Source: Acidobacteriaceae bacterium (lineage in GTDB: Bacteria; Acidobacteriota; Terriglobia; Terriglobales; Acidobacteriaceae). Taken from it: a stretch of 64,000 nt of DNA. This document shows positions 2,637 through 35,578 of this stretch, piece by piece. Where the stretch lies: contig PMYL01000015.1 of the NCBI GenBank assembly GCA_003170825.1, positions 74 through 64,073 on the forward strand, read 5' to 3'. Each line of letters opens with the position of its first letter. Position 1 is the stretch's first letter. A program made the position numbers and the translations under genes. The notes below the pieces were generated by a model. It made no database searches. It was not told the DNA's origin and saw only the letters and a list, made by a program, of their open reading frames with translations.

Positions 2637-3185
2637 TCATTGCGCCGCGGTCTTTTTCGGCAGCAGGGAGTCGAGCAGGAGGAGGCATGCGCCGGTGACG
2701 ATGGAGGAGTCGGCCAGGTTGAAGTCGGGCCAGTGGTAGGTGAAGATGTGGACTTCAATGAAGTCGACGACCGAGCCGTAGAGGATGCGGTCGTGGACGT
2801 TGCCGAGGGCTCCGGCAAAAATGAGGGCGAGGGCGACGGTGGTGAGGGTGAAGCGGTTGCCGAGGCGGACCATGGCAACGAGGACGATCAAGGCTGCCAG
2901 AAGCGAGAAGCCGATCAAGGCCCAGCGGACCGTGTGGGGCGAAGCGGAGTCGGCGAAGAGCGAGAAGGCCGCGCCCTCGTTGGTCCAATGGGTGATGCGC
3001 AGAACGCGGGGTATGACCGCGATGGCGCCACCCATGGGGATGCGGAGCGTTACCAAGGTCTTGGTCAGGCGGTCGGCAAGGATGACCAGCGCGGAGATGA
3101 GCAAAAGCCAGGGCAGGCGGCGACCACCCCACGGACGAAGACCTGTGCGTGGGGACCCCGGGCGGCGAGGGGCTGGAAAGCTCAC
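2637..3185 (-). CDS. lspA: Lipoprotein signal peptidase (signal peptidase II)
   Basis: Motifs DRLTK, NEGAAFS, GALGNVHDRILYGSVVDFI and FNLADSSI; directly downstream of ileS. Confidence 0.95.
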   Translation of the reverse strand: MSFPAPRRPGSPRTGLRPWGGRRLPWLLLISALVILADRLTKTLVTLRIPMGGAIAVIPRVLRITHWTNEGAAFSLFADSASPHTVRWALIGFSLLAALIVLVAMVRLGNRFTLTTVALALIFAGALGNVHDRILYGSVVDFIEVHIFTYHWPDFNLADSSIVTGACLLLLDSLLPKKTAAQ

Positions 3186-6148
3186 GAGGCGGCCTCCGGA
3201 GATTGCGGCTGTGGCGGGTCGATGCCCATTTCGGTGAGCGCGGATTGGCAGCGGGTGCAGACGTTCTGCCAGATGCCGTAGTTCGAGACTTCAGGCATGA
3301 AGTTCCAGCAGCGAGCGCACTTGTGGCCTGTTGCGGAGTATACGGCGAACGAGAGATAGTTCGACGTCGTCATTGTCTTGAAGAAGGGCTTTTCCTTCGC
3401 AGGAGCCCTGTATCCCGATTCCACCGCACCGTTGAGAACCAAAACCTTTGAAACATTGAGTAACTCCTTGAGTCCGTCCTCATGCTGTTTGAGGAGGCCG
3501 AAGATCTCTTCTTTCACAAGGAAATGGATCTCCGCTTCAAGAGACTTTCCGATCATCTTGTCTTGGCGGGCGTCTTCGAGGAGCCGAAGCGCCAGATCGC
3601 GAATATTGAGAAGGTCTTTCCACTCTTCGAGCAACGGCGCTGGATCTTCGGAGAAGATCTCAGCCGGGGCAGGGAATTGGGCGAGGTGGACGCTCGCTTC
3701 GCGGCCTTCGACGGCGGGGAGATAGTCCCAAACTTCGTCGGCGGTGAAGCTGAGGATGGGCGCGACGAGACGAACGAGGGTTTCGGTGATCTGCCAGAGC
3801 ACGGTTTGCGCCGAGCGGCGCTCGTGGCTTGTGGGCGCGAAGGTGTACATGCGGTCCTTGAGCACATCGAGATAGAAGGAACTCAGGTCCACGATGGCAA
3901 ACTCATTGACCGCGTGATAGACGCGATGAAACTCGAAGGCCGCGTACCAGCCAAGAATCTTTTCAGTCAGTTCACGTGTCCGGGCCAGCATATAACGGTC
4001 GAGCGGCAGAAGCTCCGCTTCTTTGATCCTGTCGCGGACGGGGTCAAAGCCGTTGAGATTGCCGAGCAGGAAGCGGAAGGTGTTGCGCAGCTTGCGATAG
4101 ATGTCGGCGCAGCGCTGCATTAAGTTTTCGCTGGCGGCCATGTCTTCGCGGAAATCGATAGAGGCGACCCAGAGGCGGACGATTTCGCCGCCAAGGCGGT
4201 TGGCGATATCGACGGGATCGACTCCGTTGCCGAGGGACTTGGACATGGCGCGGCCCTGCTCGTCGAGGGTCCAGCCGGCGGTGGCGACGTGGGAGTAGGG
4301 CGCGCGGCCGCGCAAGGCCACCGAGGTGAGCAGCGAGGAGTGGAACCAGCCGCGGTGCTGGTCGCCGCCTTCGAGGTACAGGACTTGTGTGCCTTCGTTC
4401 TTTTGGAAAGCGGTGTAGGGCGCCTTGAGGTCGGGGTCGGCTTCGCAGACGGCAAACCAACTCGTGCCGGAGTCGAACCAGACGTCGAGAATGTCGGTTT
4501 CCTTGCGGAACTCGGTGTTGCCGCAGTGGGAGCAGACGGTGTTGGGCGGAAGCAGGCCGGACGTGTCGATGGTGTGCCAGGCTTCGGCGCCTTCGCGGTC
4601 GAAGAGATCGACGATGGCGCGGTTGAGCGCCGGGTCGTTGATGGGCTGGTTGCATTTCTCGCAGAGGAAGACGGCGATGGGTACGCCCCAGATGCGCTGG
4701 CGGCTGATGCACCAGTCGGGGCGGGTGGCGATCATGTTGGTGATGCGCTCCTTGCCCCAGGCCGGGTCCCAGACCACCTTATCAATTTCTTCGATGGCCA
4801 ACTGGCGGAAGGTGGTTTCTGTGCCGTCGGCGCGTCGGACAGGGGTCTCGAGGCCGATGAACCACTGCTCGGTGGCGCGGAAGATGACCGGCTTGTGGCA
4901 GCGCCAGCAGTGCGGGTAAGAGTGTTGAAGATCGGAACAGGCCAGCAGCGCGCCGGACTCTTCGAGTATGGCGACGATGATGGGATTGGCGTCCCAGACC
5001 TTCTTGCCATCGAAGGCGGGCGGAGCGGTGTGGTCCCAGGCGCTCGGGTCGACGTGGATGTGGCCCGCGGCGTCCACGCGGCAGGTGGGGTCGAGGCCGT
5101 AACGGACGCCAGTGTAGAAGTCGTCCGCACCGTGGGCGGGGGCCGTGTGAACGGCTCCGGTGCCCTGGTCGGCGGTGACGTAGGTGGCCAGGACGCCGAG
5201 GATGCTGCGATCGAGGAAGGGATGGCTGAAGGTGACGCGGTCGAGCATGGCGCCTTTGAAGCGGGCGAGTTCGGTGGTTGGGCCTAACTGGCAGGCGGCA
5301 GCGACCGAGGCGGCCAGTTCAGCGGCGACGATGTAGACTGCCCCATCTTCCGCGACCAGCGCAACGTAGTCGAAGTCGGGATGAAAGGCTACGGCCAGGG
5401 ACGCGGGCAGGGTCCAGGGGGTGGTGGTCCAGATGATGGTGGAGACCTGCTTGCCGGCGAGGGCTGGGTGGATGGCCGCCTGGTCCGAGGTAAGGCGGTA
5501 GCGCACGTAGACCGAGGGGCTGGTGTGGTTCTCGTACTCGACCTCGGCCTCGGCCAGGGCGGTTCGGTCGTGGATGCACCAGTAGACCGGTTTAAGGCCG
5601 CGGTAGACGAAGCCTTTCTCGAGGAAGCCGTAAAAGGCTTCGAGGGAGCGGGCCTCGTAGTCGCGGGCCATGGTCTTGTAGGGTTTGTCCCAGCGGCCGA
5701 AGCAGCCGATGCGCTCGAACTGCGAGGTTTGCAGGTCAACGTACTTTTGCGCGTAGGCGCGGCAGGCTTCGAGGACGGCGGGGACAGGCATTTCGAGCTT
5801 CTTGCGGCCCAGATGCTCATCCACCTTGATCTCGATGGGCAGGCCGTGGCAGTCGTAGCCGGGGACGTAGGGAGCGTCGAAGCCGGCCATGGTTTTGGAC
5901 TTGACGACAAAATCCTTGAGGCCCTTGTTGAGGGCGTGGCCGAGGTGGATGGGGCCGTTGGCGTAAGGAGGGCCGTCGTGGAGAATATAGGAGGGACGGC
6001 CGCGGCCGGCTTTGCGCAGTTCTTCGTAAAGGCGGAGCGAGGCCCAGCGGGCCAGCCGAAGCGGTTCATTCTGTGGCAGATTGGCCTTCATCGGAAAGGC
6101 GGTCTGCGGCAAGGTAAGGGTCGCCTTCAACTCCGGCGCTGCGGGCAT
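3182..6148 (-). CDS. ileS: Isoleucine--tRNA ligase
   Basis: HDGPPYANGPIHLGH (HIGH), WTTTPWTLP, DWCISRQRIWG, AMSKS (KMSKS) and a C-terminal CARCW..C.RC zinc finger. Start taken at MPAAPELK; the ORF track extends to 6181. Confidence 0.97.
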   Translation of the reverse strand: MPAAPELKATLTLPQTAFPMKANLPQNEPLRLARWASLRLYEELRKAGRGRPSYILHDGPPYANGPIHLGHALNKGLKDFVVKSKTMAGFDAPYVPGYDCHGLPIEIKVDEHLGRKKLEMPVPAVLEACRAYAQKYVDLQTSQFERIGCFGRWDKPYKTMARDYEARSLEAFYGFLEKGFVYRGLKPVYWCIHDRTALAEAEVEYENHTSPSVYVRYRLTSDQAAIHPALAGKQVSTIIWTTTPWTLPASLAVAFHPDFDYVALVAEDGAVYIVAAELAASVAAACQLGPTTELARFKGAMLDRVTFSHPFLDRSILGVLATYVTADQGTGAVHTAPAHGADDFYTGVRYGLDPTCRVDAAGHIHVDPSAWDHTAPPAFDGKKVWDANPIIVAILEESGALLACSDLQHSYPHCWRCHKPVIFRATEQWFIGLETPVRRADGTETTFRQLAIEEIDKVVWDPAWGKERITNMIATRPDWCISRQRIWGVPIAVFLCEKCNQPINDPALNRAIVDLFDREGAEAWHTIDTSGLLPPNTVCSHCGNTEFRKETDILDVWFDSGTSWFAVCEADPDLKAPYTAFQKNEGTQVLYLEGGDQHRGWFHSSLLTSVALRGRAPYSHVATAGWTLDEQGRAMSKSLGNGVDPVDIANRLGGEIVRLWVASIDFREDMAASENLMQRCADIYRKLRNTFRFLLGNLNGFDPVRDRIKEAELLPLDRYMLARTRELTEKILGWYAAFEFHRVYHAVNEFAIVDLSSFYLDVLKDRMYTFAPTSHERRSAQTVLWQITETLVRLVAPILSFTADEVWDYLPAVEGREASVHLAQFPAPAEIFSEDPAPLLEEWKDLLNIRDLALRLLEDARQDKMIGKSLEAEIHFLVKEEIFGLLKQHEDGLKELLNVSKVLVLNGAVESGYRAPAKEKPFFKTMTTSNYLSFAVYSATGHKCARCWNFMPEVSNYGIWQNVCTRCQSALTEMGIDPPQPQSPEAAS

Positions 6149-6406
6149 CGTCACTCCCTGGGATGGTGCGAACTTGTTCATTGGTTAGTGTAAATGGCGC
6201 GGGGCGAGGAATTTTGCGTTACAACCGTGCGCGTTCCCCGTCTATTGTTTATGGGAGACCGGACCACAGTGGAATATGAGACCCTGGAGTTCGAGACCCT
6301 GACCGGCGAGACAGAGACGGGCGCAGTCGAGCATAATAGACAGATGGGCCGGGAAGCGGGAAATGTTCCGTCCGGGCGCCCAGAGGCCACAGAACCAGCC
6401 GCAACT

Positions 6407-7369
6407 ATGGCAAACGACCTGCTCATTCAGCCAGACACGGAATCCCAAGCCGCCGCGGTCATCGCGGACGGCTTCGAACTCGACCTCACCTTCGGGATTC
6501 CCATCGAGGAAAAGCCCATCTGGAGCGGGCTCTACGAGAGCATCCGCGACGTCTTTTTTCCGCCCAAGCTGCCGCCGCTGAAGTTGACCTCGACGCCGAT
6601 TCCGGTTCCGGACCGGATGGCGGTGAAGCCGAATCCTTGGGCGATCGGCATCTCCACCACTCTTAACGTGGCCATTCTGATTGTCGCTCTCATCTTTGGC
6701 GTGGCGAAGGTCGTCGATCAGGTCAAGAAGAACAACTTGGTCGTGACGCCGGTCGATTTGACGGAATTCAAGGCCCCCAAGAAAGATGTTGCCGCGGGCG
6801 GCGGCGGCGGAAGCCCGGACAAGATCGAAGCGATCAAGGGCAAAATCCCCCCGCGCGAGCAGCCTGCGGTGATCACTCCCAAGTTGGAGCCGCCGCTTCC
6901 CTCGATCGATGTGCAGAAGGACATTATCATTCCCGACAATCCGAACCTGCCGAATTTTGGCGTCTCGAACTCTGCCAACGTCAAGCTGGCTTCGGGCGGA
7001 ACCGGAACCGGCATGGGCCTGGGTTCAGGGCATGGAGATGGATACGGGCCGGGTTACGGCGGAAACATCGGTGGTGGTCTGGAGAGAATAGGCGGCCGGG
7101 TTTCGGTGCCCGTGGTTTTGTACGAGCCCGAGGCCGAGTTCTCCGACGAAGCGCGCCGGGCCAAGTACCAGGGAGTTTGCATCATCACGCTGATTGTGGA
7201 TAAGGATGGGAATCCGCAGAATCCGCATGTGACCCGCGCGCTGGGCATGGGGCTGGACGAGAAGGCCCTGGAAGCGGTCCGCAAGTACAAGTTCAAACCG
7301 GCGATGAAGGACGGCAAGACGCCGGTGTCGGTCATGCTTAGCATCGAGGTCAACTTCCGCATGTATTGA
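6407..7369 (+). CDS. Energy transducer TonB family protein
   Basis: One TM helix, a Pro/Gly-rich linker and a TonB C-terminal domain (PEAEFSDEARRAKYQG...ALEAVRKYKFKPAMKDGK.PVSV). Start at MANDLL is inferred; the ORF track begins at 6194. Confidence 0.88.
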   Translation: MANDLLIQPDTESQAAAVIADGFELDLTFGIPIEEKPIWSGLYESIRDVFFPPKLPPLKLTSTPIPVPDRMAVKPNPWAIGISTTLNVAILIVALIFGVAKVVDQVKKNNLVVTPVDLTEFKAPKKDVAAGGGGGSPDKIEAIKGKIPPREQPAVITPKLEPPLPSIDVQKDIIIPDNPNLPNFGVSNSANVKLASGGTGTGMGLGSGHGDGYGPGYGGNIGGGLERIGGRVSVPVVLYEPEAEFSDEARRAKYQGVCIITLIVDKDGNPQNPHVTRALGMGLDEKALEAVRKYKFKPAMKDGKTPVSVMLSIEVNFRMY

Positions 7370-7389
7370 AGGCGCGGGACGGTTGCGAC

Positions 7390-7427
7390 AAAGGGAGCGG
7401 AGCGCATGGGCGCTTCGCTTTTCTTTT
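7390..7427 (+). terminator. Probable intrinsic terminator after the TonB gene
   Basis: Stem gagcggagcgc-atgg-gcgcttcgctt followed by ttctttt. Confidence 0.65.
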
Positions 7428-7519
7428 GCGCGCAAGAACTCCCTGAAGCGATAACCCTGAAGGCAACGACGGCTCTGCTGTGGTAATCTTCGCTGTTCAG
7501 GAATAGGGAGGCAAGGGCG

Positions 7520-9775
7520 ATGAGGCTGCGGCGGTGGATGGGCGTGTTGGCGGGGTTGGCGATTGTGGCGGGGCTGGCGCGGGGGCTTCAAGCGCAGGCG
7601 GATTATCCGTTCCGGGACCCGAAGCTGGGCGACGACCAGCGGATTGCCGACCTGTTGGGCCGGCTGACGCTGGAAGAAAAAATTTTGCTGATGTCGGACC
7701 ACCCAAAGATTCCGCGGCTGGGGCTGGTTTTCTCCGGCCAGGTGGAGGGGTTGCACGGGCTTGCGCTGGGCGGGCCGGGCGGCTGGGGCGGCAGGGGCAG
7801 GACGCCGCTGCCGACGACGACGTTTCCGCAGGAAAAAGGGCTGGGCGCGACCTGGGACCCGGAACTCGTGAAAAAGATTGCCTCGGTGGAGGGCTACGAG
7901 GCGCGCTACGACTACCAGAATCCGGTCTACGACCGGGGCGGGGTGGTGGTGCGGGCGCCCAACGCCGATCTGAGCCGCGATCCGCGCTGGGGCCGGACCG
8001 AGGAGTCGTATGGCGAGGACCCGTTTCTGGTGGGGACGCTGACGGTGGCTTTCGCGCAGGGGTTGCAAGGGCCCGATCCGAAACACTGGCAGGCCGCCTC
8101 GCTGATGAAGCACTTTTTGGCCAATGAGAATGAGGATGGGCGCTCCTACACCTCGTCGGACTTCGATGAACGGCTGTTTCGCGAGTACTACTCGGCGCCT
8201 TTTCGCATGGGCTTCGAGGAGGGCGGCTCGCGGGCGGTGATGGCGGCGTACAACTCGTGGAACGGCACGCCCATGCTGATCCATCCGGTGCTGAAGGACG
8301 TGATGATCCGTGAGTGGGGCAACGATGGGCTGATCTGCTCGGACGGCGGCGCGCTGGGGCTGCTGATTACCGCTCACAAGAGCTTTGCCGACAAGGAGCA
8401 CGGCGTGGCGGCGGCGGTGAAGGCGGGCATCAACAACTTTCTCGATACCTATATCGACGACCTGCGCAAGGCGCTGAAGGACGGCCTGCTGACCGAGGCG
8501 GACATGGACGCCTCGCTGCACAATGAGCTGCGCGTCTTTCTGCGGCTTGGCGAGTTCGATGCGCCGGGAGTGGATCCTTACGGGGAGATCGGCCGGAATA
8601 CGATCGGGACCAAAGATGAGGCGGGGCCGCCGTGGGATCGGGATTCAAGCAAGGCGCTGGCGCGGCTGGCGACGGACGAGTCGGTGGTGCTATTGAAAAA
8701 CGAGGGCAATACGCTGCCGCTGGACCGCGCGAAGCTGAAGACCATTGCGGTGATCGGGCCGTGGGCGGACCAGGTGCTGCTGGATTGGTACAGCGGAACG
8801 CCGCCGTATGCGGTGAGTGCGCTGGAGGGGATTCGCGAAGGCGCCGGCAACCACCCCAACGACAAGGACCCGTCGTTGGGGACCCCGGACAGCGGCGTGA
8901 AGGTGCTGTTTGCCGACGGATCGGACCCCGCTGAGGCAGTGGCGCTGGCTCGCAAGGCGGACGTGGCGATTGTGGTGGTGGGCAATCATCCGGAGTGCAA
9001 TGCCGGCTGGGACCAGTGCCCGACTCCCTCGAACGGCAAGGAGGATGTGGACCGCAAGACCATCGTGCTGGAGCAGGAGGAGCTGGTGAAGCAGGTCTTT
9101 GCGGCCAATCCGAAGACGATCGAGGTGCTGCGGGCGAGCTTTCCGTATGCGATCGTCTGGAGCCAGCAGAATCTGCCGGCCATTGTGCACATCACGCACA
9201 ACAGCCAGGAAGAGGGCCACGGGCTGGCCGACGTGCTGTTTGGCGACTACTCGCCGGCCGGGCGGCTTACGCAGACTTGGCCCACGGGCGACGCGCAGTT
9301 GCTGCCCATTCTGGACTACAACCTGCTGCACGGAGAGACTTACCTCTACAGCAAGCAGAAGCCGCTTTACGCCTTCGGTTACGGGCTCAGCTACACGAGC
9401 TTTGCGTTTGAAGGGGTGAAACTGAGTGAGCCGAAGGTGACGGCCGAGGGCTCGGTTCAGGTGACGGTGAAGGTGAAGAACACGGGCAAGCGGGCTGGCG
9501 ATGAGGTGGTGCAGTTGTATGTGCAGCACCTGGGCTCGGCTGTGACGCGGCCACAGTTGGAATTGAAGGGATTCAAGCGGGTGCGGATCGAGGCAGGGGC
9601 GGAGCGGGATGTGACGCTGGAGCTGAAGCCGCGTGACCTGGCGTACTGGGACGCGGCGGGCCACGTCTGGCGGGTGGAAAAGGAACAGGTGCGTGTGCTG
9701 GCCGGCGGATCGAGCGACAAGTTGCCTGTTCAGGCCGTTTTGGCTGTCGATTCGAGCGGAGAGTTCAAACCATAG
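7520..9775 (+). CDS. Glycoside hydrolase family 3 (beta-glucosidase/xylosidase), secreted
   Basis: Signal peptide; RDPRWGRTEESYGEDP, MKHF, ICSDGGA (nucleophile region), LYAFGYGLSYTSF and a C-terminal Fn3-like domain. Confidence 0.93.
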   Translation: MRLRRWMGVLAGLAIVAGLARGLQAQADYPFRDPKLGDDQRIADLLGRLTLEEKILLMSDHPKIPRLGLVFSGQVEGLHGLALGGPGGWGGRGRTPLPTTTFPQEKGLGATWDPELVKKIASVEGYEARYDYQNPVYDRGGVVVRAPNADLSRDPRWGRTEESYGEDPFLVGTLTVAFAQGLQGPDPKHWQAASLMKHFLANENEDGRSYTSSDFDERLFREYYSAPFRMGFEEGGSRAVMAAYNSWNGTPMLIHPVLKDVMIREWGNDGLICSDGGALGLLITAHKSFADKEHGVAAAVKAGINNFLDTYIDDLRKALKDGLLTEADMDASLHNELRVFLRLGEFDAPGVDPYGEIGRNTIGTKDEAGPPWDRDSSKALARLATDESVVLLKNEGNTLPLDRAKLKTIAVIGPWADQVLLDWYSGTPPYAVSALEGIREGAGNHPNDKDPSLGTPDSGVKVLFADGSDPAEAVALARKADVAIVVVGNHPECNAGWDQCPTPSNGKEDVDRKTIVLEQEELVKQVFAANPKTIEVLRASFPYAIVWSQQNLPAIVHITHNSQEEGHGLADVLFGDYSPAGRLTQTWPTGDAQLLPILDYNLLHGETYLYSKQKPLYAFGYGLSYTSFAFEGVKLSEPKVTAEGSVQVTVKVKNTGKRAGDEVVQLYVQHLGSAVTRPQLELKGFKRVRIEAGAERDVTLELKPRDLAYWDAAGHVWRVEKEQVRVLAGGSSDKLPVQAVLAVDSSGEFKP

Positions 9776-9862
9776 AGAGTAAGGAGCTATGGTGGCAAGA
9801 ACGCACTGCGGTCTTTGCCGCGAGAGCTGGGGGTCCAGAAAGCTTGCAGAGTGAGGAAGGAA

Positions 9863-9939
9863 TGGTGCGCCCGGAGAGAGTCGAACTCCCGACCTACTGG
9901 TTCGTAGCCAGTCGCTCTATCCAGCTGAGCTACGGGCGC
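9863..9939 (-). tRNA. tRNA-Arg (ACG)
   Basis: Reverse complement GCGCCCGTAGCTCAGCTGGATAGAGCGACTGGCT-ACG-AACCAGTAGGTCGGGAGTTCGACTCTCTCCGGGCGCACCA: 77-nt cloverleaf with encoded CCA. Confidence 0.97.
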
Positions 9940-10027
9940 ACACGGTTAGTCGCCGCGGCGACCATAGACAGATTATCAGGGTTTTTCAGGCGGCGCAATT
10001 GGTCGAGGGCCTGTTCAAAGGCCCTGT

Positions 10028-10291
10028 TCAGGCTGCGGGGGCCGGTTCGGGGTCGGACTGTGGCGGGATCATAGGCAGTTCCTCGTCGATCTCAAGGCCG
10101 GTCTCGCGGACGAGCTTGGTGACGGCGGCGGCGGTGAGCCGGGTAGCGTCGTACTCGACGCGGAGGGTGCGGGCGGCGTGGTCGAAGCTGAGACGGCGGA
10201 TGCCGTAGACGTCCTTGGTGCTGGCCAGCGCCAAGGACGCCTGCTCAGTGGGCGGCGTGGTGTAGGACAAGAGAATTTCCACCGTGGTCAT
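10028..10291 (-). CDS. Small hypothetical protein with HMA/ferredoxin-like pattern, lacking CxxC
   Basis: 87-aa ORF from ATG 10291 (MTTVEILLSY...YGIRRLSFDHAARTLRVEYDATRLT); it is the C-terminal part of track ORF 10028..10639. Confidence 0.65.
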   Translation of the reverse strand: MTTVEILLSYTTPPTEQASLALASTKDVYGIRRLSFDHAARTLRVEYDATRLTAAAVTKLVRETGLEIDEELPMIPPQSDPEPAPAA

Positions 10292-10338
10292 AAGGGAATG
10301 ATAGCAAGGCGAGGGGCGCTGGAGTGCGATGCCACGCG

Positions 10339-10866
10339 CTACATGCTCTTGAGATAGGCGCGGATCTCGGGGTTGGACCAGTCCGGATCGCCGACGATCT
10401 TGCGGCGGATGACGCCTTGGCGGTCGATGATGTAGGTCTCGGGCCATCCCTCGGTGTGGTAAAGCCTGGCGGCGGACTGGCTGGGGTCGCGGACGGTGAT
10501 GAAGTCGACGTGCCGGCGGACGAGGAAGCGGCTGTATGCGTTGGGGTCGTCGTCGATGCTGACGGCGAGAATGGCCAGGTCGGGCCGGTCGTGGTGGAGT
10601 TCGACTAACCCCGGCATCTCCTGAACGCACGGTGGGCACCAGGTGGCCCAGAAGTTGAGCAAGACAACCTGGCCCCGGTAGCTGGCCAGATGGATGGTGG
10701 TTGCGCCGTCGGAGACGGTGAAGTCGGGGGCTACCTTGCCGGTTTGGGCAGGATGGGCGCCGCGATCGCAGGCGGAGACGAGGGCCAACGGCAGGAGCAG
10801 AGTGGATGTGAGTAAACGAGGAAACCGCACATCCTTATAATACGGAGCGAAAGGGCGGATCGTCAT
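10339..10866 (-). CDS. TlpA/ResA-like thiol-disulfide oxidoreductase (lipoprotein)
   Basis: LALVSAC lipobox-like segment, APDFT, LLNFWATWCPPC and PETYIIDRQG. Start uncertain (ATG 10866 or GTG ~10830). Confidence 0.9.
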   Translation of the reverse strand: MTIRPFAPYYKDVRFPRLLTSTLLLPLALVSACDRGAHPAQTGKVAPDFTVSDGATTIHLASYRGQVVLLNFWATWCPPCVQEMPGLVELHHDRPDLAILAVSIDDDPNAYSRFLVRRHVDFITVRDPSQSAARLYHTEGWPETYIIDRQGVIRRKIVGDPDWSNPEIRAYLKSM

Positions 10867-11038
10867 GGGGAAGGACAGGCCTGAGGCGAACGGGACGGCT
10901 GGGGGAAACAAGCCGGTTCTCCACCCCACTGACAAAGACCCGTCCGTGGGGACCCCGGTGCTGGGGCTCTCCGGCGAGCCGGGCGAGCAGGTTGTCCGCC
11001 GCTGCGGATCGGGACGGTCTGAGTGGGCCGCCGGGACG

Positions 11039-12103
11039 GTGTTCGACCAGCCGGAGCCGGAGGAGCTGATCGAGCTTACGGTGATCGTTCCGGCGCGGAA
11101 TGAGGAGGATTGCCTGGGCGCGTGCCTTCGGTCGCTGGTGAGCCAGTCGGAGGAGATCTTCGAGCTGGGCCGGGACTGGGAGCTGATTGTGGTGGACGAC
11201 CACTCGACGGACCGCACGGTTGAAATTGCGCGCGGCTTTGCCGGGGTTACGGTGATGCAAGCGGGCGAACTGGAGCCGGACTGGACGGGGAAGGCGAACG
11301 CCATCTGGACGGCGGTCCGAAAGGCGCGTGGGCGGTGGCTGCTGTTTACGGATGCCGATACGATTCACGAACAAGGAAATCTGCGCCGGGCCATCCATGA
11401 GGCGGCGCGGCACGAGGTGGGAATGCTGAGCTATTCGCCACGGCAGATGGTGAGCGGCTTGGCGCAGCGGTCGTTGATGCCACTTATCTTCTGCGAGCTG
11501 GCGCTGGCCTATCCGCCGGCAAAGGTCTCGGACCCGAACCAGCGGATCGCCGCGGCCAACGGACAGTTTCTGCTGGTGGAGCGGGAGGCTTACCGTCGGC
11601 TGGGCGGACACGCGAGCGTGGCGGAGAAGGTGCTGGAGGATGTGGAACTGGCCTTTCTGGCCAAGCGGCGCAGGGTGAGGCTGCGCTTCCGCTATGCGGA
11701 CGACGCGGTAGCCACGCGGATGTACCGGTCAACGGCAGCGATGATCGAGGGCTGGACCAAGAACCTGGCGCTGCTCTTTGATAACTGCCTGGCGCTGGCG
11801 GTGTGGCGGGCGCTGGATATCGTGCTGCTGGCGGGGTTGCCGGTGCTGACGGTGGAGCTTTGGAACGCTCGCTTTGCGGCGCATTCGTTGCAGTGGCTAG
11901 GCGCCGGGTGGGTGCTGGCGCTGTTGTGGGTGCGGACGCTGTTCCGGTTTTATGCGCGGGTGGCGAAGTCCAACTTTCCCTTTGTGGACTGCGCGCTCTC
12001 GCCGCTGGGACTGCCGTTGTTTGTGGCGTTGCTCTACCGGAGCTGGTTTCAGCATCGAATCCTGAAGCGGGTAAACTGGAAGGGCAGGAGCTACGCGGCG
12101 TAG
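11039..12103 (+). CDS. Membrane glycosyltransferase family 2
   Basis: VIVPARNEE, VVDDHSTD, WTGKANA, LFTDADT, NGQFLL, EDVEL and RMY...EGWTKN with C-terminal TM helices. GTG 11039 is the inferred start; the track starts at 10865, overlapping tlpA. Confidence 0.9.
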   Translation: MFDQPEPEELIELTVIVPARNEEDCLGACLRSLVSQSEEIFELGRDWELIVVDDHSTDRTVEIARGFAGVTVMQAGELEPDWTGKANAIWTAVRKARGRWLLFTDADTIHEQGNLRRAIHEAARHEVGMLSYSPRQMVSGLAQRSLMPLIFCELALAYPPAKVSDPNQRIAAANGQFLLVEREAYRRLGGHASVAEKVLEDVELAFLAKRRRVRLRFRYADDAVATRMYRSTAAMIEGWTKNLALLFDNCLALAVWRALDIVLLAGLPVLTVELWNARFAAHSLQWLGAGWVLALLWVRTLFRFYARVAKSNFPFVDCALSPLGLPLFVALLYRSWFQHRILKRVNWKGRSYAA

Positions 12104-12181
12104 GAGCATTTGCAGACCGAGGCCTGATTGGCAGCTCTTTTGAGGGGCTGAAATACGGGCAGTATCGTAGCGGAGGAGAGA

Positions 12182-12340
12182 ATGAGGAATAACAGATATG
12201 CCGAATCAGGTATCGGCTTCGGGAGCGCATTTGCTCTGGTTATTTCGTGGGCAAAGTGGCACTCGTTCTGGTGGGCATTGCTGCACGGAATTCTCGGCTG
12301 GGCCTATGTGTTCTACTACTTCGTCATCAAAAGATATTGA
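12182..12340 (+). CDS. 52-aa small membrane protein
   Basis: GGAGGAG RBS followed by MRNNRYAESGIGFGSAFALVISWAKWHSFWWALLHGILGWAYVFYYFVIKRY*; below the ORF-track length cutoff. Confidence 0.75.
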   Translation: MRNNRYAESGIGFGSAFALVISWAKWHSFWWALLHGILGWAYVFYYFVIKRY

Positions 12341-12400
12341 GTGGAGATGCACGTGCAGCCAAGGCGGGGTTTGCGGCATCTTTTCCAGTGAGGGGTCAAA

Positions 12401-12877
12401 ATGGTTTATTTAACGCGGCGGGCAATGTTTTCCGCTTCGCACTACTACTGGAACGAGGCCTGGTCGGCGGCCCAGAACGAGCAGGTCTTCGGGCGCTGCT
12501 CGAATCGCAACGGGCACGGGCACAATTACACGCTGGAGGTGACGGTGGCGGGCGAGCCCGACCCGGTGACCGGCTTTGTTGTGGATCTGAAGTGGCTGAA
12601 GGACGCGATGGAGCGAGAGGTGCTGGCCGCATGGGATCATCGCCACCTGAACCTGGAAGCGCCGGAGTTTGCCGAGCTGATTCCGACCACGGAGAACATT
12701 GCGATTGCGGCGTGGAATCGGCTGGAGCCGGCGGTGACGGCGGCTGCTAACGGGGATTCTCGCCGGGCGCGGTTGAGCCGGGTTCGCGTCTATGAAACGC
12801 CGGAGATTTTTGCCGAGTACCGGGGTCCCCACGGACAGGTCTTCGTCCGTGGGGTGGATTACCGGGGTGAGATGTGA
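12401..12877 (+). CDS. 6-pyruvoyl-tetrahydropterin synthase/QueD-fold protein (copy 1)
   Basis: FSASH, CSNRNGHGHNY, DHRHLN, PTTENIA and RVRVYET motifs. Confidence 0.9.
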   Translation: MVYLTRRAMFSASHYYWNEAWSAAQNEQVFGRCSNRNGHGHNYTLEVTVAGEPDPVTGFVVDLKWLKDAMEREVLAAWDHRHLNLEAPEFAELIPTTENIAIAAWNRLEPAVTAAANGDSRRARLSRVRVYETPEIFAEYRGPHGQVFVRGVDYRGEM

Positions 12878-13281
12878 GGGCATACTTTGGCCGCCGCTAT
12901 ATGTTGAGCGCCAGCCACCGGCTGCATACCGATGCGCTCTCGGCCGAGGAGAACCGGGCGGCGTATGGCAAGTGCAACAATCCGCAAGGCCACGGACATA
13001 ATTACGTGGTGGAGGTGCTGGTGGGCGGCACGGTGGACCCGGAGACCGGGATGGTGGTGAACATGGCGGCGCTGGATGAGGCGGTGCGCGGCAAAGTGAT
13101 GGAGCGATTTGACCACACCAACCTGAATCTGGACCCGCTGTTTGTGAATCGTGTGCCGACGACGGAGAATCTGTGTAAGGTGGTCTTCGGATTATTGAAG
13201 GACGCGCTGCCGACGGGTGAGCTGGAGCGAGTGCGCGTGGAAGAGACCGAGAACAATTTCTTTGAGTTCTACGGTGAGTGA
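12874..13281 (+). CDS. 6-pyruvoyl-tetrahydropterin synthase/QueD-fold protein (copy 2)
   Basis: LSASHRL, CNNPQGHGHNY, FDHTNLN, PTTENL and VRVEETENN; GTGA overlap with copy 1. Confidence 0.9.
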   Translation: MRAYFGRRYMLSASHRLHTDALSAEENRAAYGKCNNPQGHGHNYVVEVLVGGTVDPETGMVVNMAALDEAVRGKVMERFDHTNLNLDPLFVNRVPTTENLCKVVFGLLKDALPTGELERVRVEETENNFFEFYGE

Positions 13282-13325
13282 TTTTTGAGATTCGCGGAGT
13301 TGATGAGGGCTCCGGATTGAGGTTC

Positions 13326-13384
13326 GTGGTTTCCCACCCTAGCCGCAAAAATCCGCCGCGGCGGACGGCGAGGGTGGGGCACCC
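13326..13384. repeat. REP-like palindrome (cccaccct...agggtggggcaccc)
   Basis: Inverted arms cccaccct/agggtggg enclose the perfect palindrome tccgccgcggcgga; intergenic. Confidence 0.6.
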
Positions 13385-13408
13385 AGCGTTATGAGTGGAA
13401 GGACAAAC

Positions 13409-13466
13409 GCAGGTTCTTCGACTGCGCAAGTCGCGAAGGGCGCGACTTGCTCCGCTCAGAATGACA
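13409..13466. repeat. REP-like palindrome (ttcttcgactgc...ccgctcagaatgaca)
   Basis: Internal stem gcaagtcgcg/cgcgacttgc; adjacent to the previous element and upstream of folE. Confidence 0.55.
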
Positions 13467-13489
13467 ATCATGAAGCGAGGATGAGAAGC

Positions 13490-14110
13490 ATGGCGCAGCC
13501 GATTGCAGTGAGCAAGGCCGTTCGCGGGGCGGTTGGGATGGACGAAGGGCTGAGCGAGTTCAGCACCGAAGAGATGTATCGCGAGATTCTGCGCCGGTTA
13601 GGCGAGGACCCCAACCGCGAGGGCCTGCTGGCTACGCCGGGGCGCGTGGAGAAGTCGATGGCCTTTTTGACCAAGGGCTACGACGAGAACCCCACACGGA
13701 TTCTGCGCGGGGCGCTCTTCGACGAGGACTACGACGAGATGGTGATCGTGAAGGATATCGAGATGTTCTCGCTCTGCGAGCATCATATGCTCCCTTTCTT
13801 CGGAAAGGTGCATGTGGCCTATATCCCCAAAGGAAAAGTCATCGGGCTGAGCAAGATTCCCCGCCTTGTCGAGGTTTTTGCGCGGCGCCTTCAGGTGCAG
13901 GAGCGGCTGACGCGGCAGATTGCGGACGCGATTCAAAATGCTATAGAACCGCAGGGCGTGGGGGTGGTCGTCGAGGCACGGCACCTGTGCATGATGATGC
14001 GCGGCATCGAGAAGCAGCACTCCTCGACGGTGACTTCGGCCATGGTGGGCTGCTTCCGCCAGAAAGAAACGCGGTTGGAGTTCCTGTCGCTGGTGCGACA
14101 GCCGGACTAG
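13490..14110 (+). CDS. folE: GTP cyclohydrolase I
   Basis: [51 protein letters not shown] and HLCMMMRG. Start inferred from a GAGG RBS. Confidence 0.95.
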
Positions 14111-14154
14111 AGCGAGGATTGATTGGCTGCGGCGGGCGACCGGGAACCAATGCT

Positions 14155-15018: not shown

Positions 15019-15152
15019 AATTCATAAGATGAAGAGGCTCACGCCGGGGTTGGCAAGGGCTCGACGGCAAATAGGGTGCGGCGCGACCGTGGGTGGGCGG
15101 CCGATGGCGCGGTGGTGCAACGCACCACGCGAAAATGCTCTAGAGTGGTTAG

Positions 15153-16046: not shown

Positions 16047-16054
16047 AGCAGGGG

Positions 16055-22716: not shown

Positions 22717-22744
22717 AAATTCCGTGATAAATCCTTCAGGTTCC

Positions 22745-28787: not shown

Positions 28788-29334
28788 GGCAACCTCTTCG
28801 ATGAAGCTTTTTTGGTGCAGTATGCATTGCCTGGCCCGAAAGACACCACCTCGCGACGATGCCTGTGAGGGAAATCGTCCTGGTCTTTCCTGAATAGGCA
28901 TGCCGGAGCAGGCCTGGCCACGTGTGGGACTAAGCTGACTTCTTTAATATAACGAAAATTTCGCTTTTCGGCAGAACTTCCTTTCGTGGCGCCGTTCGAA
29001 TGGGCATGCCGATTGCTGTGGAGAACGCAATCGTCTCCGACAAGGATCGCGGCGGCGCCGCTCCGCGGGATGCGGAGGTCTTCCCGTGAGTGGAGGGCGC
29101 GCTGGACAAGCCGGGAGACCGGTTGCTCTTGCTGAACGCTCGTCCACAGTTCCTGTCAGCAGGAGATCGTCAATGCGGTGGCGCGCACCTGGCGCAGTGG
29201 CAGTGCAGTGGCCGCGGTAAGGGACTGCTGAATTTCCGCAAGTACTGAGAGGGCGATGGTTTCGGGCAGGCCGGCACAGGTGGCGACGAGGCAGTCGGCA
29301 AAGCTGCCGTTGATGGGCTGGCCGGTGAGTTGGT

Positions 29335-30048: not shown

Positions 30049-30062
30049 GGAGTGGCGCCTCG

Positions 30063-30111
30063 GCTTACGGCTTACAGCTTACAGCTTTCAGCTATCAGTT
30101 GTCAGTGGTCG
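30063..30111. repeat. Degenerate heptamer tandem repeat
   Basis: gcttacg gcttaca gcttaca gctttca gctatca gttgtca gtggtcg. Confidence 0.7.
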
Positions 30112-30161
30112 GCAAGCCGTCAAGCCGGCGCGTCGGGACCTGGGCCAGCCGCCTTCCCGTC

Positions 30162-31178
30162 CTAAACAATGTTGTAGGTACTTGAAAGCTGCCCGGACAG
30201 GATATGGAGGTTTTCAGGAGCGTAGTTCGAGGCTGGAGTCTGGCACCGTTGCTGGACACTGGCGTATAGCGAGGAGCCCGCGATGATGTTGCGGGGGTGC
30301 GGAAAGAGGCGATATAGCCCCGTCAGGGAGTTATGGAGGGTTGCCAGGGCGTCGGCAAGCTGGGGCTGGGGCGGAAATGCGCCCGGGTTGAACTGCAGGC
30401 CGCAGTTCTGTGCGTAGTCTGCCATCCAGTGCAGAGTGATGTTGGAGAGCGCGCATCCACCTTGATCGGGAGGGTATGCGCCACCGCCCACGTCGCAATG
30501 GACGCCGGAGAACCACACCTGCGTGAGGGATTGTCCGGGCGCCGTGGCAGGGGTCCAGAGAGTGGGTTGGAACTGGAGTCTATGTTCATCGATGGACAGC
30601 GCCTGAACGGCGTTCAGGACGTCCGGGTGCAGGCCGGTATCGAGGAAGCCGTATTGGACAACATCGATTCCGCCGAAGATGGCGGGAATCCCCAGGGAGC
30701 CGACGGTATCCCAGACCCCAAGCAGCTGAATCTTGGCGTTATCCATTTGATAGGTTTCGTTCAGGGTGTCGAGGAGCATCTGGCGCTGGGAGACATTGCG
30801 ATAGGCCTCGAATGCCATATCGAGGCATTGGGGATCGTTCTGGTTCACAGTGGGGAGCCCGGCAACGGCAATCATGCCCGCCAGGCTGCGGGCGGTGTAG
30901 GCTCCGCGGCTGAAGCCGAAGATGAAGATCCGGTCGCCGGGGAGATATTGAGCGGCTATGTCGATATAGCCCCGCTTGATCTTTCGAAAGAGCCCGTCTC
31001 CCAAAGCGCCGCCGAGGAGATCGCTGATCGGATCCCCATCCGTGCCGACGCCCGGGTCGTAGGAGGTCAATTGGACGCCGTCGATGTTGGAGGCCGCGGA
31101 GTACAGCTTGACGACATTTGAGTTATTGGATGGCTCGTCCCAGGTTCCGTCGGCAAAGAAAGCGATGTTCTTGGGCAT
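30162..31178 (-). CDS. DUF2235 alpha/beta-hydrolase (Tle1-like phospholipase domain)
   Basis: FADGTWD, SNVVKLY, YDPGVGT, FGFSRGAYTAR, GVWDTVGS and WFSGVHCDVGG. Confidence 0.88.
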   Translation of the reverse strand: MPKNIAFFADGTWDEPSNNSNVVKLYSAASNIDGVQLTSYDPGVGTDGDPISDLLGGALGDGLFRKIKRGYIDIAAQYLPGDRIFIFGFSRGAYTARSLAGMIAVAGLPTVNQNDPQCLDMAFEAYRNVSQRQMLLDTLNETYQMDNAKIQLLGVWDTVGSLGIPAIFGGIDVVQYGFLDTGLHPDVLNAVQALSIDEHRLQFQPTLWTPATAPGQSLTQVWFSGVHCDVGGGAYPPDQGGCALSNITLHWMADYAQNCGLQFNPGAFPPQPQLADALATLHNSLTGLYRLFPHPRNIIAGSSLYASVQQRCQTPASNYAPENLHILSGQLSSTYNIV

Positions 31179-31348
31179 GGATTCTCCTTTTCAGCAGCTC
31201 ACGTTTAGCGGTTCGATGCTTGGAGCCCGGATTGGAGAAAGAGTATGTCCACGGCGGGGGGTGAGTCAATTGGGAAAAATCGCCTGGCAGGCGGGGCGCT
31301 GGCGGGCAGCTACTCCTGTAAAGTTGGGAGAAGCACCTCGTATTTTTC

Positions 31349-33544: not shown

Positions 33545-33770
33545 GGGTTTTCGATACCGCGGAAATTCCCGGGATCGCAGTCCAGGAAACTCGCGCGACC
33601 ACCATCAACGTTACATTGAAGCTTGGGAAGGCCTCCGAATCCGTTGAGGTTACGGCTAATCCCATGCTCAACGCGACCGACGGCTATACGCTGAACTCCG
33701 CGCAGATTGAGCTTACCCCTCTGGCCACCGGCAGCTTTACCCAGCATGCTGTGCTTTCGCCGGGCGTGGC
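33541..33770 (+). pseudogene. Remnant of a TonB-dependent receptor (carboxypeptidase-regulatory-like N-terminal region)
   Basis: IAVQETRATTINVTLKLGKASESVEVTANPMLNATDGYTLNSAQIELTPLATGSFTQHAVLSPGV resembles acidobacterial TBDR N-termini; it has no signal peptide and no barrel. Confidence 0.6.
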
Positions 33771-33957
33771 AAAGGCGAAGCTGAGCAGGCCTGGCCGGCT
33801 CAACTGGAGCGCCAGCCACTCCAGCAGCGAGATGCGATGCGGAGCTCTTATTTCCAAGGCGTGCTCGACCCTGGTTTTAACGGGCAATCCGGAAGTATGC
33901 ACCGACAGCCTGGACTTGCACCGATCGACCAGTACCGAACCCAGACGAGCAGAGCGC

Positions 33958-35154
33958 TCATCGGAAGAAGCTGAAGCCTTTTTTCTTTTCCGGGTATACG
34001 CTCAGGCCGCAAGCTGTGCCGGCCATTTTACGGATCATGAGTGAAATGGGCGAGTCCTGGAGCGCGAGCGGGGTAGCAGTGTCCTGCATCTGCCGGACCG
34101 TGGCGTAATCGTTGGGAATCTTCCACTGGACGGGCCTGGAGAGCGCCTTCGCAACTTGCTCATCATTGATTCCCATAGAGCCTGGCTTATACCGGTTGAG
34201 CACGATTTCGAGGTTGGGGCCACCTGTGGTGAAGTACTGGCCTATCAGGCGATTTGCATTGCGCAGTTCGGGAATGCTGACCTGCGTGACCAGATAGATG
34301 GTGGAAGCCTGGTTGAGGAGAGCCGTGCCGGTTGGATCAAGCCTGGATCCCGCATCGACTACCACGTTATCGAAGTCCTTGCGGGCGACGGCCAGCAGCT
34401 TGTCAATGGCTTCGTGCGAGGCCTCGACGAGGAGGAATTTGCCTGGGGCCGCGAGTACCCACAACCCCGAACTATGCCTGACGAGCAGTCCGGAGAGGAA
34501 ATTCGAGTCGAGGCGGGCAGTATCCTCAAGAGCGTTGACAGTCGAGTATTCAGAGGTGATCCCGAGGTTGAGGGCCGCGTCTCCAAGGGGGAGATTGAGA
34601 TCGATCAAGAGGGTGTTCTGGGCGAGGTCATGGGCCAGCGATACGGCGAAATTGCAGGCGACGGTGGTGACGCCGGAGCCGCCCTTGGCGCCGAGAAACA
34701 CGAACAACCTGCCGGTTGCTTTCCTGGAGGGGATCGTTGCCGGACGGCGGACCGAAACCCGCACCAGAGCTTCGGCCATGGCGCCGGGAGCGCAGGGCAG
34801 AGTGAGAAACTCGCGAGCGCCCGCTTGCATGCAGCGGATCAGCAGTTCCGGAGCGGCATGAGCCGAATAGACGATCACGGTTGCCGAGTCATGGGCACAG
34901 ATGCTCCCCACCAGATCGAGGGCGCATTCCGGGTCACTGTCCAGGTCAATGAGGACGACGTCGTAATTCTGCTCCAGCATCTTCTGCAAATAATCGTGGC
35001 CGTGAGGGTAGGAAGAAAACTCCTGGATCGCGCCAGCCTGGCAGCCGGCAATCTCGCCGGCTACCGTCTTGCGGCGCCGGTCTTCCGGGCCGACGATCGC
35101 GATGGACAAGACGCTGGCGCTAAGTGCATCGGGAATCTGGATAGAGGCTGACAT
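33958..35154 (-). CDS. cpaE: CpaE/TadZ-like pilus assembly ATPase (receiver-like + MinD-like), paralog 1
   Basis: Receiver-like N-terminus (DVVLIDLDSDPE, CMQAGAREFL), deviant Walker A GAKGGSGVTT, LIDLNLPLGDAAL, IPELRNA and KIPNDY. Confidence 0.85.
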   Translation of the reverse strand: MSASIQIPDALSASVLSIAIVGPEDRRRKTVAGEIAGCQAGAIQEFSSYPHGHDYLQKMLEQNYDVVLIDLDSDPECALDLVGSICAHDSATVIVYSAHAAPELLIRCMQAGAREFLTLPCAPGAMAEALVRVSVRRPATIPSRKATGRLFVFLGAKGGSGVTTVACNFAVSLAHDLAQNTLLIDLNLPLGDAALNLGITSEYSTVNALEDTARLDSNFLSGLLVRHSSGLWVLAAPGKFLLVEASHEAIDKLLAVARKDFDNVVVDAGSRLDPTGTALLNQASTIYLVTQVSIPELRNANRLIGQYFTTGGPNLEIVLNRYKPGSMGINDEQVAKALSRPVQWKIPNDYATVRQMQDTATPLALQDSPISLMIRKMAGTACGLSVYPEKKKGFSFFR

Positions 35155-35532
35155 GACGAAACTTCTTCTCCAAGCTGCGTGCAACACTCCCGCGGGCTAC
35201 CGCGATTGTTCAACTGTGTGAACCTATTATAAAACAAATCAAAAACTGCTCAGTAGGGTTATCGGCAGCAGGGAAGCCGACATTAGAATTCTTTGAGACG
35301 CGGCTCATCGCATAACCTCCGCCTCGTCATTAAGAACTTTAGAAACAATTGGTTACGATACTTACCATTCTGTCACGACGGAGGTCGCGGGTTGGAGCGC
35401 TGTCGTCCCCGCCCTACATCCCAATGGGCCTGGCGGGGACGGCGACGAGAGGGACAGTTACCCATGGGCGCAATTAGAGCGGAACCAGAGTAAACGTGTC
35501 ATTGCAGAGAGTTTTCTGGGTGGCTTTTGCTT

Positions 35533-35578
35533 CCACCCCTGCGACGAAGACCCCGCCGCGGCGGGCTGGGGACCCCGG
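35533..35578. repeat. HPTD..GTP-family palindromic repeat, long-loop variant
   Basis: ccacccctgcgacgaagaccccgccgcggcgggctggggaccccgg. Confidence 0.6.

Follow-up and report, generated by a model that had tools for sequence, protein, structure and literature searches.

Several kinds of small bacterial repeat have been described that resemble the element examined here. Repetitive extragenic palindromic sequences (REPs) are GC-rich, imperfect palindromes of 20-40 bp that are present in high copy number, are mostly extragenic and are enriched downstream of genes. Rickettsia palindromic elements (RPEs) are palindromic insertions of ~100-150 bp that lie in frame within functional genes of Rickettsia, where they add 30-50 residues missing from orthologues, and that also occur between genes. 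Miniature inverted-repeat transposable elements, or MITEs, such as Correia/NEMIS, RUP, ERIC and Nezha, are non-autonomous, dispersed and usually 70-300 bp long, with short target-site duplications, strain-polymorphic insertions and, sometimes, in-frame intragenic copies. The insertion sequences (IS) of the IS200/IS605 group and their gene-less derivatives, the palindrome-associated transposable elements (PATEs), have subterminal hairpins that are recognised as structures, and their orientation is biased by replication (lagging-strand template). For REPs, one criterion is that the hairpin has a conserved, unpaired tetranucleotide, GTAG or CGTC, at its foot, and copies are occasionally found in genes, including uvrA and aminoacyl-tRNA synthetase genes, or nested in palindromes (Di Nocera et al., PMC3733652). 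Here we analyse element E, a 38-bp repeat present in five copies in a 64,000-nt stretch of DNA from an Acidobacteriaceae bacterium (assembly GCA_003170825.1, contig PMYL01000015.1, positions 74 to 64,073 of the forward strand), which we call the window and in whose coordinates window features are given. E is probably a non-autonomous, mobile or recently mobile hairpin element that is specific to the Acidobacteriaceae.

The 38-bp unit reads CCACCCC-stem-8 nt loop-stem-ACCCCGG (consensus CCACCCCACGGACGAAGACCTGTCCGTGGGGACCCCGG) and is built from a 3-nt foot, a 10-bp stem, an 8-nt loop, the return stem and a 7-nt tail. Its feet, CCA at the 5′ end and ACCCCGG at the 3′ end, are kept in 65/65 variants, and its inverted repeat is subterminal and asymmetric, with 3 nt outside it on one side and 7 nt on the opposite side. 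Folded as DNA, E forms a hairpin of -12.8 kcal/mol (z = -3.9), and the consensus contains no stop codon in any of its six frames. Eight Watson-Crick versions of a variable stem triplet are present, with perfect pairing in 106 of 132 instances; the covariation score of the stem is 0.208, compared to 0.062 in shuffles and reached by 0 of 500 shuffles, with two stem pairs covarying. The search pattern itself fixed the rest of the stem, which is uninformative on covariation.

All five copies in the window were confirmed at the positions and strands given by an initial annotation of this DNA. In particular, copy 1 is located at 3124..3161 (+; 60.9 bits; one stem mismatch), copy 2 at 8851..8888 (+; 62.1 bits; an AAC/GTT compensatory stem variant with a perfect hairpin), copy 3 at 10921..10958 (+; 60.5 bits; one stem mismatch), copy 4 at 12820..12857 (-; 67.1 bits; identical to the family consensus) and copy 5 at 35533..35578 (+; 28.6 bits; degenerate and intergenic). 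A covariance model built from 65 family variants and run on the whole window with filters off finds these five copies, scoring the four canonical ones at 60-67 bits and copy 5 at 28.6 bits, and finds nothing else below an E-value of 1e-5. Moreover, these sites account for all five occurrences of the 11-mer GGGGACCCCGG in the window, and a 37-nt pattern of the element has 0 matches in 100 shuffles. The proposal that the hairpin is preserved by covariation is borne out across the family (8 variants), while the proposal had passed over the stem mismatches in copies 1 and 3. Copy 5 folds no better than shuffled sequence. Rfam searches, both at gathering thresholds across the whole window and at E-values <= 5 across 2500-13500, returned tRNAs and chance matches only and none at the sites of the element, and no description of the family was found in the literature searched for its peptides, its DNA core and acidobacterial REPs.

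Copy 5 differs from the others in its construction. Its 3′ arm is replaced or interrupted by a palindrome, CCGCCGCGGCGG (35552-35566), its 3′ arm and loop are rearranged, and it is nested centrally in another hairpin repeat (GGGTGGCTTTTGCTTC...TTGAGGAAAAACCAC, ~35519-35600) that occurs with and without E in other genomes. A copy in L037 (7618-7668) carries CCCGGCTCTTCGAGCCACCCG, likewise a small palindrome or foreign sequence, in place of part of its loop and 3′ arm. As the two cases illustrate, E can also be the target of a nested insertion or rearrangement.

The family extends far beyond the window. One genome per species was scanned with the 37-nt pattern, and 8-kb blocks were sampled from related genomes as loci with L-numbers; E is present in at least 116 genomic stretches. 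Among the matches listed, the sources are peat and soil metagenome-assembled genomes (MAGs), mostly Terracidiphilus, and all labels but one are Acidobacteriaceae, Terracidiphilus, Silvibacterium or Acidobacteriota MAGs. The sole non-acidobacterial label among them, 'uncultured Gammaproteobacteria', belongs to L007 (CAWEZY010000004.1), a locus that also has acidobacterial repeats of the CCCAGGTCTC type; its bin label or contig assignment is probably wrong. The covariance model finds 141 matches in 761 kb of loci and 32 in a further 166 kb; 120 of the 141 score above 55 bits, indicating that decayed copies are rare. Copies are single or form direct tandem arrays with a 42-bp period and a constant 4-nt spacer (L021, L044, L060, L100, L107 and L110). 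In public peat metagenome runs (X1, X5, X12 and X17), word depth over the copy at 8851-8888 is 25-30x that of its flanks, and assembly unitigs stop at or inside E. Only 5 matches were found in 2.9 million viral contigs, so that phages are no obvious vehicle for the element.

The placement of E was determined using a home-made gene caller, a periodic Markov model trained on long open reading frames (ORFs) of the same DNA, which separates the true frames of ileS and of a glycoside hydrolase family 3 (GH3) gene by hundreds of log-odds units. Across 132 copies, 75 are intergenic, 22 are upstream of the best start and 34 are inside genes. The insertion into coding sequence described in the initial annotation is real, although most copies (75/132) are intergenic; overall, roughly 60-75% of the family lies between genes. 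In spacers, copies occur at 0.49 per kb between convergent genes, 0.25 per kb between tandem genes and 0.14 per kb between divergent genes. Within tandem spacers, 18 copies are oriented opposite to transcription and 10 are co-oriented, a difference that is not significant. Nine Pfam-confirmed host genes elsewhere encode a GH67 alpha-glucuronidase, UvrA (two sites), the valyl-tRNA synthetase ValRS, an ABC exporter (two tandem copies), YidC, YjeF, the glutamyl-tRNA synthetase GluRS and MatE.

Comparisons with orthologues, rather than ORF length, place four of the five window copies inside genes; the three assignments made earlier (lspA, GH3 and a 6-pyruvoyl-tetrahydropterin synthase, PTPS) hold, and copy 3 lies in an ORF as well. 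The lspA gene for signal peptidase II (2637..3185, -; PF01252, residues 30-174) carries copy 1 in its 5′ coding part, read on the minus strand as PGSPRTGLRPWG. Its product has 182 aa, compared to 167 aa in the L119 and L120 orthologues, and by protein alignment the additional 15 aa are RRPGSPRTGLRPWGG, which correspond to E on the other strand plus a 7-nt duplication, for a site difference of 45 bp. The GTG start of lspA overlaps the ileS stop (GTGA), likewise in L119. The GH3 beta-glucosidase gene (7520..9775, +; PF00933, PF01915 and PF14310; 751 aa) contains copy 2, read as HPNDKDPSLGTP, within an exact insertion of 42 bp and 14 aa (about 8848-8889; residues 444-457, in the C-terminal domain). 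Its closest homologues, at 93-94% identity, have 737 aa and are without exactly NHPNDKDPSLGTPD; at the DNA level, there is a clean 42-bp gap in L117 and L118, while L119 and L120 are filled with the E variant found in the window. A comparison of PDB sequences shows only that the insertion lies where solved GH3 enzymes vary; an AlphaFold2 model of the protein, calculated from a 17-sequence alignment, has a mean predicted local distance difference test (pLDDT) score of 39.7 and is unusable. Metatranscriptome contigs carry E inside GH3, which places the element within transcripts. No GH3 allele without the 42 bp was found among contigs of public runs, which drop rare variants and are therefore uninformative on polymorphism.

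The first of two tandem PTPS genes (12401-12877) holds copy 4 in its C-terminal tail, read as (R)GPHGQVFVRGV, within an exact insertion of 42 bp and 14 aa (about 12818-12859). The protein ends with EYRG-PHGQVFVRGVDYRG-EM in the window and in L079, and with EYRG-EA in L117 and L118; the DNA alignment has a 42-bp gap in the latter two and is filled in L079 (146 versus 160 alignment columns). The tandem PTPS/QueD-type genes (12401-13281) have overlapping stop and start codons, ATGTGA, at 12872-12877, and copy 4 is situated at this junction, in the tail of the first gene. Copy 3 is located in the N-terminal extension of a glycosyltransferase family 2 (GT2) ORF (10865-12103) and is read as HPTDKDPSVGTP, 19 codons past a conserved ATG (10865), downstream of which the sequence is also conserved. 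This site is filled in L117 and L118, while L079 is without a 132-bp in-frame segment containing E. The L079 gap (window 10899-11031 versus L079:479-481) spans 44 codons and is bounded by a direct repeat, CGGGACGG; it is a larger in-frame deletion and not an exact loss of E. Overall, orthologues without the DNA repeat are also without the peptide (737 versus 751 aa for GH3 and 167 versus 182 aa for LspA), the reverse of the outcome that the initial annotation had named as refuting its proposal.

The initial annotation had linked the family to the peptide HPTDxDxSVGTP, which is one reading of E and only one of six; the lspA and PTPS copies use two others. Coding copies use all six frames and both orientations, with s0, a0 and a2 dominating, and the main readings are HPTDEDLSVGTP, PGSPRTGLRPWG and GVPTDRSSSVGW. 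These data bear on whether the similarity between copies is that of a conserved peptide motif under protein-level selection, with the likeness of the DNA being secondary, an explanation that is next to impossible. Three window copies are open in the HPTDxDxSVGTP frame, as such a motif would have it, yet 57% of copies are intergenic by gene calling, the host proteins are unrelated, and DNA identity goes far beyond the needs of a 12-residue motif, with synonymous positions conserved. A protein-level motif is therefore excluded by the use of all six frames together with the stop-free consensus, and the candidate was rejected on frame and location data.

A filled site is longer than its empty version by exactly 42 bp, or occasionally by 43 or 45 bp. 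For example, neighbouring host repeats in L040 and L052 have an empty form, ...CGAGACCTGGGGCACCC, and a filled form, ...CGAGACCT-C-[E37]-ACCT-GGGGCACCC; the conversion of GAGACCT|GGGG to GAG-ACCT-C-E37-ACCT-GGGG yields a net gain of 42 bp and duplicates ACCT. Of 111 single copies, 19 have the same 4 nt in front of the leading C as behind E (1.2 expected from shuffled pairings), and 31 more have a match with one mismatch (8.5 expected). The exact 4-mers are variable, comprising 14 different duplications, and longer duplications are rare (7 nt in window copy 1 and L018, and 5 nt in L016). Within the window, copy 1 lies between the two halves of a 7-nt direct repeat, GCGGCGA (3117-3123 and 3162-3168), and copies 3 and 4 have flanks of TTCT/TGCT and TAAT/TACT, respectively, each matching at 3/4 positions. 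Together, the duplications and the filled and empty pairs argue for copy-in events. Further, because 38 and 4 nt sum to 42 and the element is stop-free in six frames, an insertion inside a gene adds 14 residues and keeps the frame; duplications of 7 nt bring the total to 45 bp, which is likewise divisible by three, and those of 5 nt are in non-coding hosts. Copies are shown to survive in surface-tolerant parts of housekeeping proteins because the frame is unbroken, and the frame-preserving length does belong to E itself (38+4), not only to the outcome of selection in genes.

These junctions are also what would be expected if E were an extremely small MITE, moved by the DDE transposase of a resident IS that makes 4-bp staggered cuts. 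The 4-nt duplication-like repeats are far above chance, a filled site exceeds its empty counterpart by E and the duplication, and REP loops are among the targets of IS3-family elements such as IS1397, which duplicate 3-4 bp there. We nevertheless consider this explanation unlikely, since the inverted repeat is subterminal and asymmetric (3 nt versus 7 nt from the ends), covariation of the stem is not expected of two protein-binding ends, the duplication length varies (4, 5 or 7 nt), and no larger element bounded by halves of E was found in ~1 Mb. The strand bias described below is a further point, as a strong replication-strand bias is unusual for DDE elements, of which Tn7 is one that has such a bias.

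Many copies are central in unrelated palindromic repeats, which belong to at least seven host families. Inverted repeats of >=7 nt are present in the flanks of 24% of copies, compared to 6% for shuffled flank pairs. The stem subfamily differs with the host: ATC stems are found in a palindrome associated with REP-associated tyrosine transposase (RAYT) genes, ACA stems in a terminator-like hairpin and ACG stems in the CCCAGGTCTC family. Since the subfamily tracks the class of host repeat, some copies appear to have spread as passengers. No guide within E that covaries with the flanking 4-mer was suggested, as associations are spread over many flank positions and follow from subfamilies travelling with particular host repeats. 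These genomes contain at least six further palindromic families (CCCAGGTCTCAAAATCGAGACCTGGGGCACCC; TTCCCACCCTTCGCG...CGCGAAGGATGGGGCACCC; GGTGGCTTTTTCTTGAGGAAAAAGCCAC; GCAGGTCCTTCGACTCCG...CGCTCAGGATGACA; CTACAGCCGGTCAGGAGACCGGCGCTACA; CCCTGATGGTCGCGTCGACTT), which are often clustered and translatable as recurrent peptides in called ORFs. Among loci L001-L116, they occur, for example, at L040:276-420, L052:2607-2960, L056:1190-1290, L048:5587-5620 and L061:4827-4870 and 7290-7360, as well as in L027, L029 and L064.

The orientation of E is tied to GC skew. In 93 of 118 loci, its sense sequence is on the strand richer in G (Fisher p = 3e-10), and loci with |skew| >= 0.1 are concordant in 44 cases and not in 3. 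The association rises with the scale of the skew measurement and persists for non-coding skew; in 53 of 66 discordant loci, E follows the skew and not the gene strand. Concordance is 62:13 for intergenic copies and 22:12 for copies in genes, and four of the five window copies are on the strand with a GC skew of +0.16 to +0.24. Since leading strands are generally rich in G, we infer that the sense strand of E (CCACCCC...) is on the lagging-strand template. Along the window, positions 1-36000 have a GC skew of +0.16 to +0.24 whatever the gene strand and a GC content of ~0.62-0.65, while positions 36000-64000 have a skew of ~0, a GC content of ~0.58-0.60 and no copy of E. The latter region encodes a Tad/Flp-type pilus cluster with a CpaF-like ATPase, a secretin with pilus-N and BON domains, a CpaE-like response regulator/ATPase and a sigma-54 activator, and it could be either an island gained by horizontal transfer or a join made in assembly.

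Copies of E come and go at the same sites. The GH3 insertion is present in 6 of 119 orthologues, scattered over a neighbour-joining tree on which it requires 6 Fitch changes. The window is closest to L117 and L118 (~92% DNA identity), with L079, L119 and L120 at 86-89%; L117 and L118 nonetheless lack the copies in GH3 and PTPS that the window has in common with genomes more distant from it. The simplest reading is that two exact 42-bp losses occurred in the L117/L118 lineage, the alternative being that the same rare variant was gained repeatedly at one nucleotide and in one orientation. Hairpin-stimulated slippage between duplicated 4-mers is an established route for the loss of palindromes, and exact loss accounts for both the patchy distribution and the scarcity of decayed copies.

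Slippage could play a larger part if E spreads without a dedicated enzyme, through template switching or microhomology-mediated copying, with hairpin-stimulated slippage producing the exact losses and the tandem arrays. The variable length of the flanking repeats, their pyrimidine-rich character and similarity between sites (NYYT), the targets that resemble the ends of E (such as TACCGGGGT at the PTPS site), the constant 4-nt spacer in arrays, the exact 42-bp losses and the replication-linked strand bias are all in line with such copying. It is however a poor account of hundreds of near-identical copies dispersed over unrelated sites in ~100 species, and it leaves unexplained the conserved loop and tail, which take no part in pairing; as a full explanation it is very improbable.

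Once in place, E diverges slowly. At four orthologous filled sites, it differs at 3/152 nt, while the 200-nt flanks differ at 168/1566 (p = 1e-4), about fivefold less for E, and divergence is high right up to its edge. We infer that its sequence or structure is constrained or homogenised. A constraint of this kind raises the prospect that E is mainly useful to the host, as a protein-binding site, a nucleoid or replication signal, or an RNA stability hairpin, with copies in genes being incidental. The lower divergence from flanking coding DNA includes the loop and tail, few copies are decayed, E is oriented with the replication strand, as some chromosome-organising motifs are, and copies are enriched downstream of genes. 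Against a host role, E is gained and lost at the same sites between close relatives with no visible consequence, some orthologous copies are decaying (P0052 and P0106), and positions are arbitrary, including the insides of enzymes and of other repeats. That E is mainly host-useful is improbable; such a role is compatible with a mobile element and does not exclude it.

The initial annotation had proposed mobilisation by a RAYT or IS200-type transposase, and the RAYT loci of these genomes speak against it. A tblastn search of ~1 Mb for Y1 transposases, using sequences of IS200 TnpA and E. coli RayT as a lead only, identified one RAYT, in L074 (Pfam Y1_Tnp; HVH and YIENNP motifs), and four further loci were obtained through homologues, all five being from one RAYT clade. 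The five loci (L074:4982-5540; L121 and L122:530-1113; L124:774-1353; L126:616-1477; Y1_Tnp with PNHVHILM and YIENNPVKAG motifs) have a different palindrome, GGCACGACTNNAGTCGTGCC, on either side, and within this single clade there is no copy of E within 700 bp of any of them. The bracketing 20-nt palindrome, GGCACGACT[GT][AT]AGTCGTGCC, is dispersed, with 22 copies in the sampled loci, and sometimes hosts E. Terracidiphilus-like bacteria thus have a bona fide REP-RAYT system around this other palindrome.

An ordinary REP, or its inverted-doublet form (REPIN), mobilised by a RAYT (a Y1 HUH tyrosine transposase) is quite unlikely as an identity for E, in spite of several points of agreement. The size fits, the hairpin is GC-rich and imperfect, and copies are mostly extragenic and enriched downstream of genes. 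In addition, the structure is kept by covariation, as expected for structure-specific recognition; the strand bias is like that generally known for IS200/IS605 elements; and RAYT genes are common in these bacteria, with 1610 homologues at an E-value <= 1e-10, many of them labelled Terracidiphilus. Intragenic REPs and REPs nested in palindromes are also on record (PMC3733652). However, in addition to the different palindrome at the five RAYT loci, E has no GTAG or CGTC foot, its copies are singlets or direct 42-bp arrays and not inverted doublets, and its flanking 4-nt direct repeats are not made by Y1 transposition.

The evidence as a whole is most consistent with E being a non-autonomous mobile element, and a route for its movement can be proposed. 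Both the covarying stem and the strand bias suggest that a folded single strand is what is recognised while the DNA replicates, and E would accordingly be moved or copied in this form at the replication fork. It would prefer the loops and 3′ arms of other hairpin repeats as well as regions downstream of genes, and integration would occur at a 4-nt staggered target, with some copies being passive passengers of other repeats. The mobilising enzyme would probably not be the local RAYT, whose paired palindrome differs. The length of the element and its stop-free sequence let copies survive in coding DNA. A bolder form of this proposal, which we regard as possible though doubtful, is that E represents a previously undescribed kind of mobile element: a single 38-nt hairpin that integrates folded at the replication fork and leaves a 4-nt duplication, moved by an enzyme other than the local RAYT or a classical IS transposase, kept homogeneous across species, and with its length and stop-free sequence selected at the level of the element for reversible colonisation of coding DNA.

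A number of observations weigh against regarding E as a mobile element of this type. No transposase or other partner gene was linked to it, and ~1 Mb of sequence yielded only decayed full-length copies and no IS-sized element bounded by its halves. In about half of the single copies, a direct repeat at the flanks cannot be recognised, duplications are of more than one length, and no simple model of duplication accounts for the GH3 junction. Target duplication implies a double-strand staggered cut, and we know of no mechanism that combines it with a single-strand hairpin intermediate; at least one of the two deductions, the staggered target or the single-strand intermediate, may be wrong. The strong conservation of orthologous copies could mean host function instead of selfish spread. 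In terms of the data, GC skew is only a proxy for replication direction; the search pattern fixes 27 of 37 positions and therefore under-samples the diversity of the family; gene calls are approximate outside the Pfam-checked cases, and coding status rests partly on the home-made caller; and copies that are orthologous or that spread within composite repeats are not independent.

Downstream of the GH3 gene in the window is a tRNA-Arg(ACG) gene (9863-9939, -), which follows it directly. In L120, an island of ~8 kb (L120:12600-21900 versus window 9776-10030) separates the two genes and encodes a tyrosine integrase, a HigB-like toxin/helix-turn-helix (HTH) pair and a DUF3854/AAA_25 gene; it looks like a tRNA-targeted integrative element.

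The presence of E has practical consequences. Acidobacteriaceae dominate acidic peat and forest soils, and their genomes are almost all MAGs; at roughly one copy per 10-50 kb, E breaks short-read assemblies. It creates spurious or extended ORFs and puts 14-residue peptides in UvrA, ValRS, GluRS, YidC, LspA and glycoside hydrolases, thereby affecting annotation, protein family alignments and strain typing. By placing the same 14 residues in many folds and in three main frames, it also provides a natural experiment on the tolerance of proteins to insertion.

Among the known systems, E is like REPs and REPINs in the properties given at the outset, and also in that its structure is conserved by compensatory change and its copies persist at orthologous sites. 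It differs from them in lacking the GTAG/CGTC tag, with CGTC/GACG occurring only at the loop-stem junction of some variants; in having direct arrays of 42-bp period in place of the inverted pairs of REPs, REPINs and bacterial interspersed mosaic elements (BIMEs); and in its 4-nt flanking direct repeat, while the local RAYT genes are flanked by another palindrome. The likeness to RPEs drawn in the initial annotation is a fair description of how E works, as it too is palindromic, lies in frame in functional genes, adds peptides missing from orthologues and also occurs between genes. It is however 38 bp long, adds 14 residues and belongs to free-living peat Acidobacteriaceae. To our knowledge, neither a short target duplication nor a replication-strand bias has been described for RPEs. 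With MITEs, E shares its non-autonomous and dispersed nature, its variable insertions and a target-site duplication of characteristic length (mostly 4 nt, rarely 5 or 7), yet it is far under their usual size, has one subterminal hairpin instead of two transposase-binding terminal repeats, and has no parent IS in the ~1 Mb sampled. The subterminal hairpin recognised as a structure and the replication-biased orientation resemble those of IS200/IS605 elements and PATEs; IS200/IS605 elements, in contrast, insert 3′ of a fixed tetra- or pentanucleotide without duplication and have distinct left and right hairpins, whereas E has one hairpin and variable duplicated 4-mers. E thus resembles known small repeats, yet no known family shows its combination of features. 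Covariation, strand bias, a 4-nt duplication, exact reversibility and slow divergence together go beyond the REP/RAYT, MITE and IS200/IS605 models, which makes E a manageable system in which to ask how repeats of so small a size move and are maintained.

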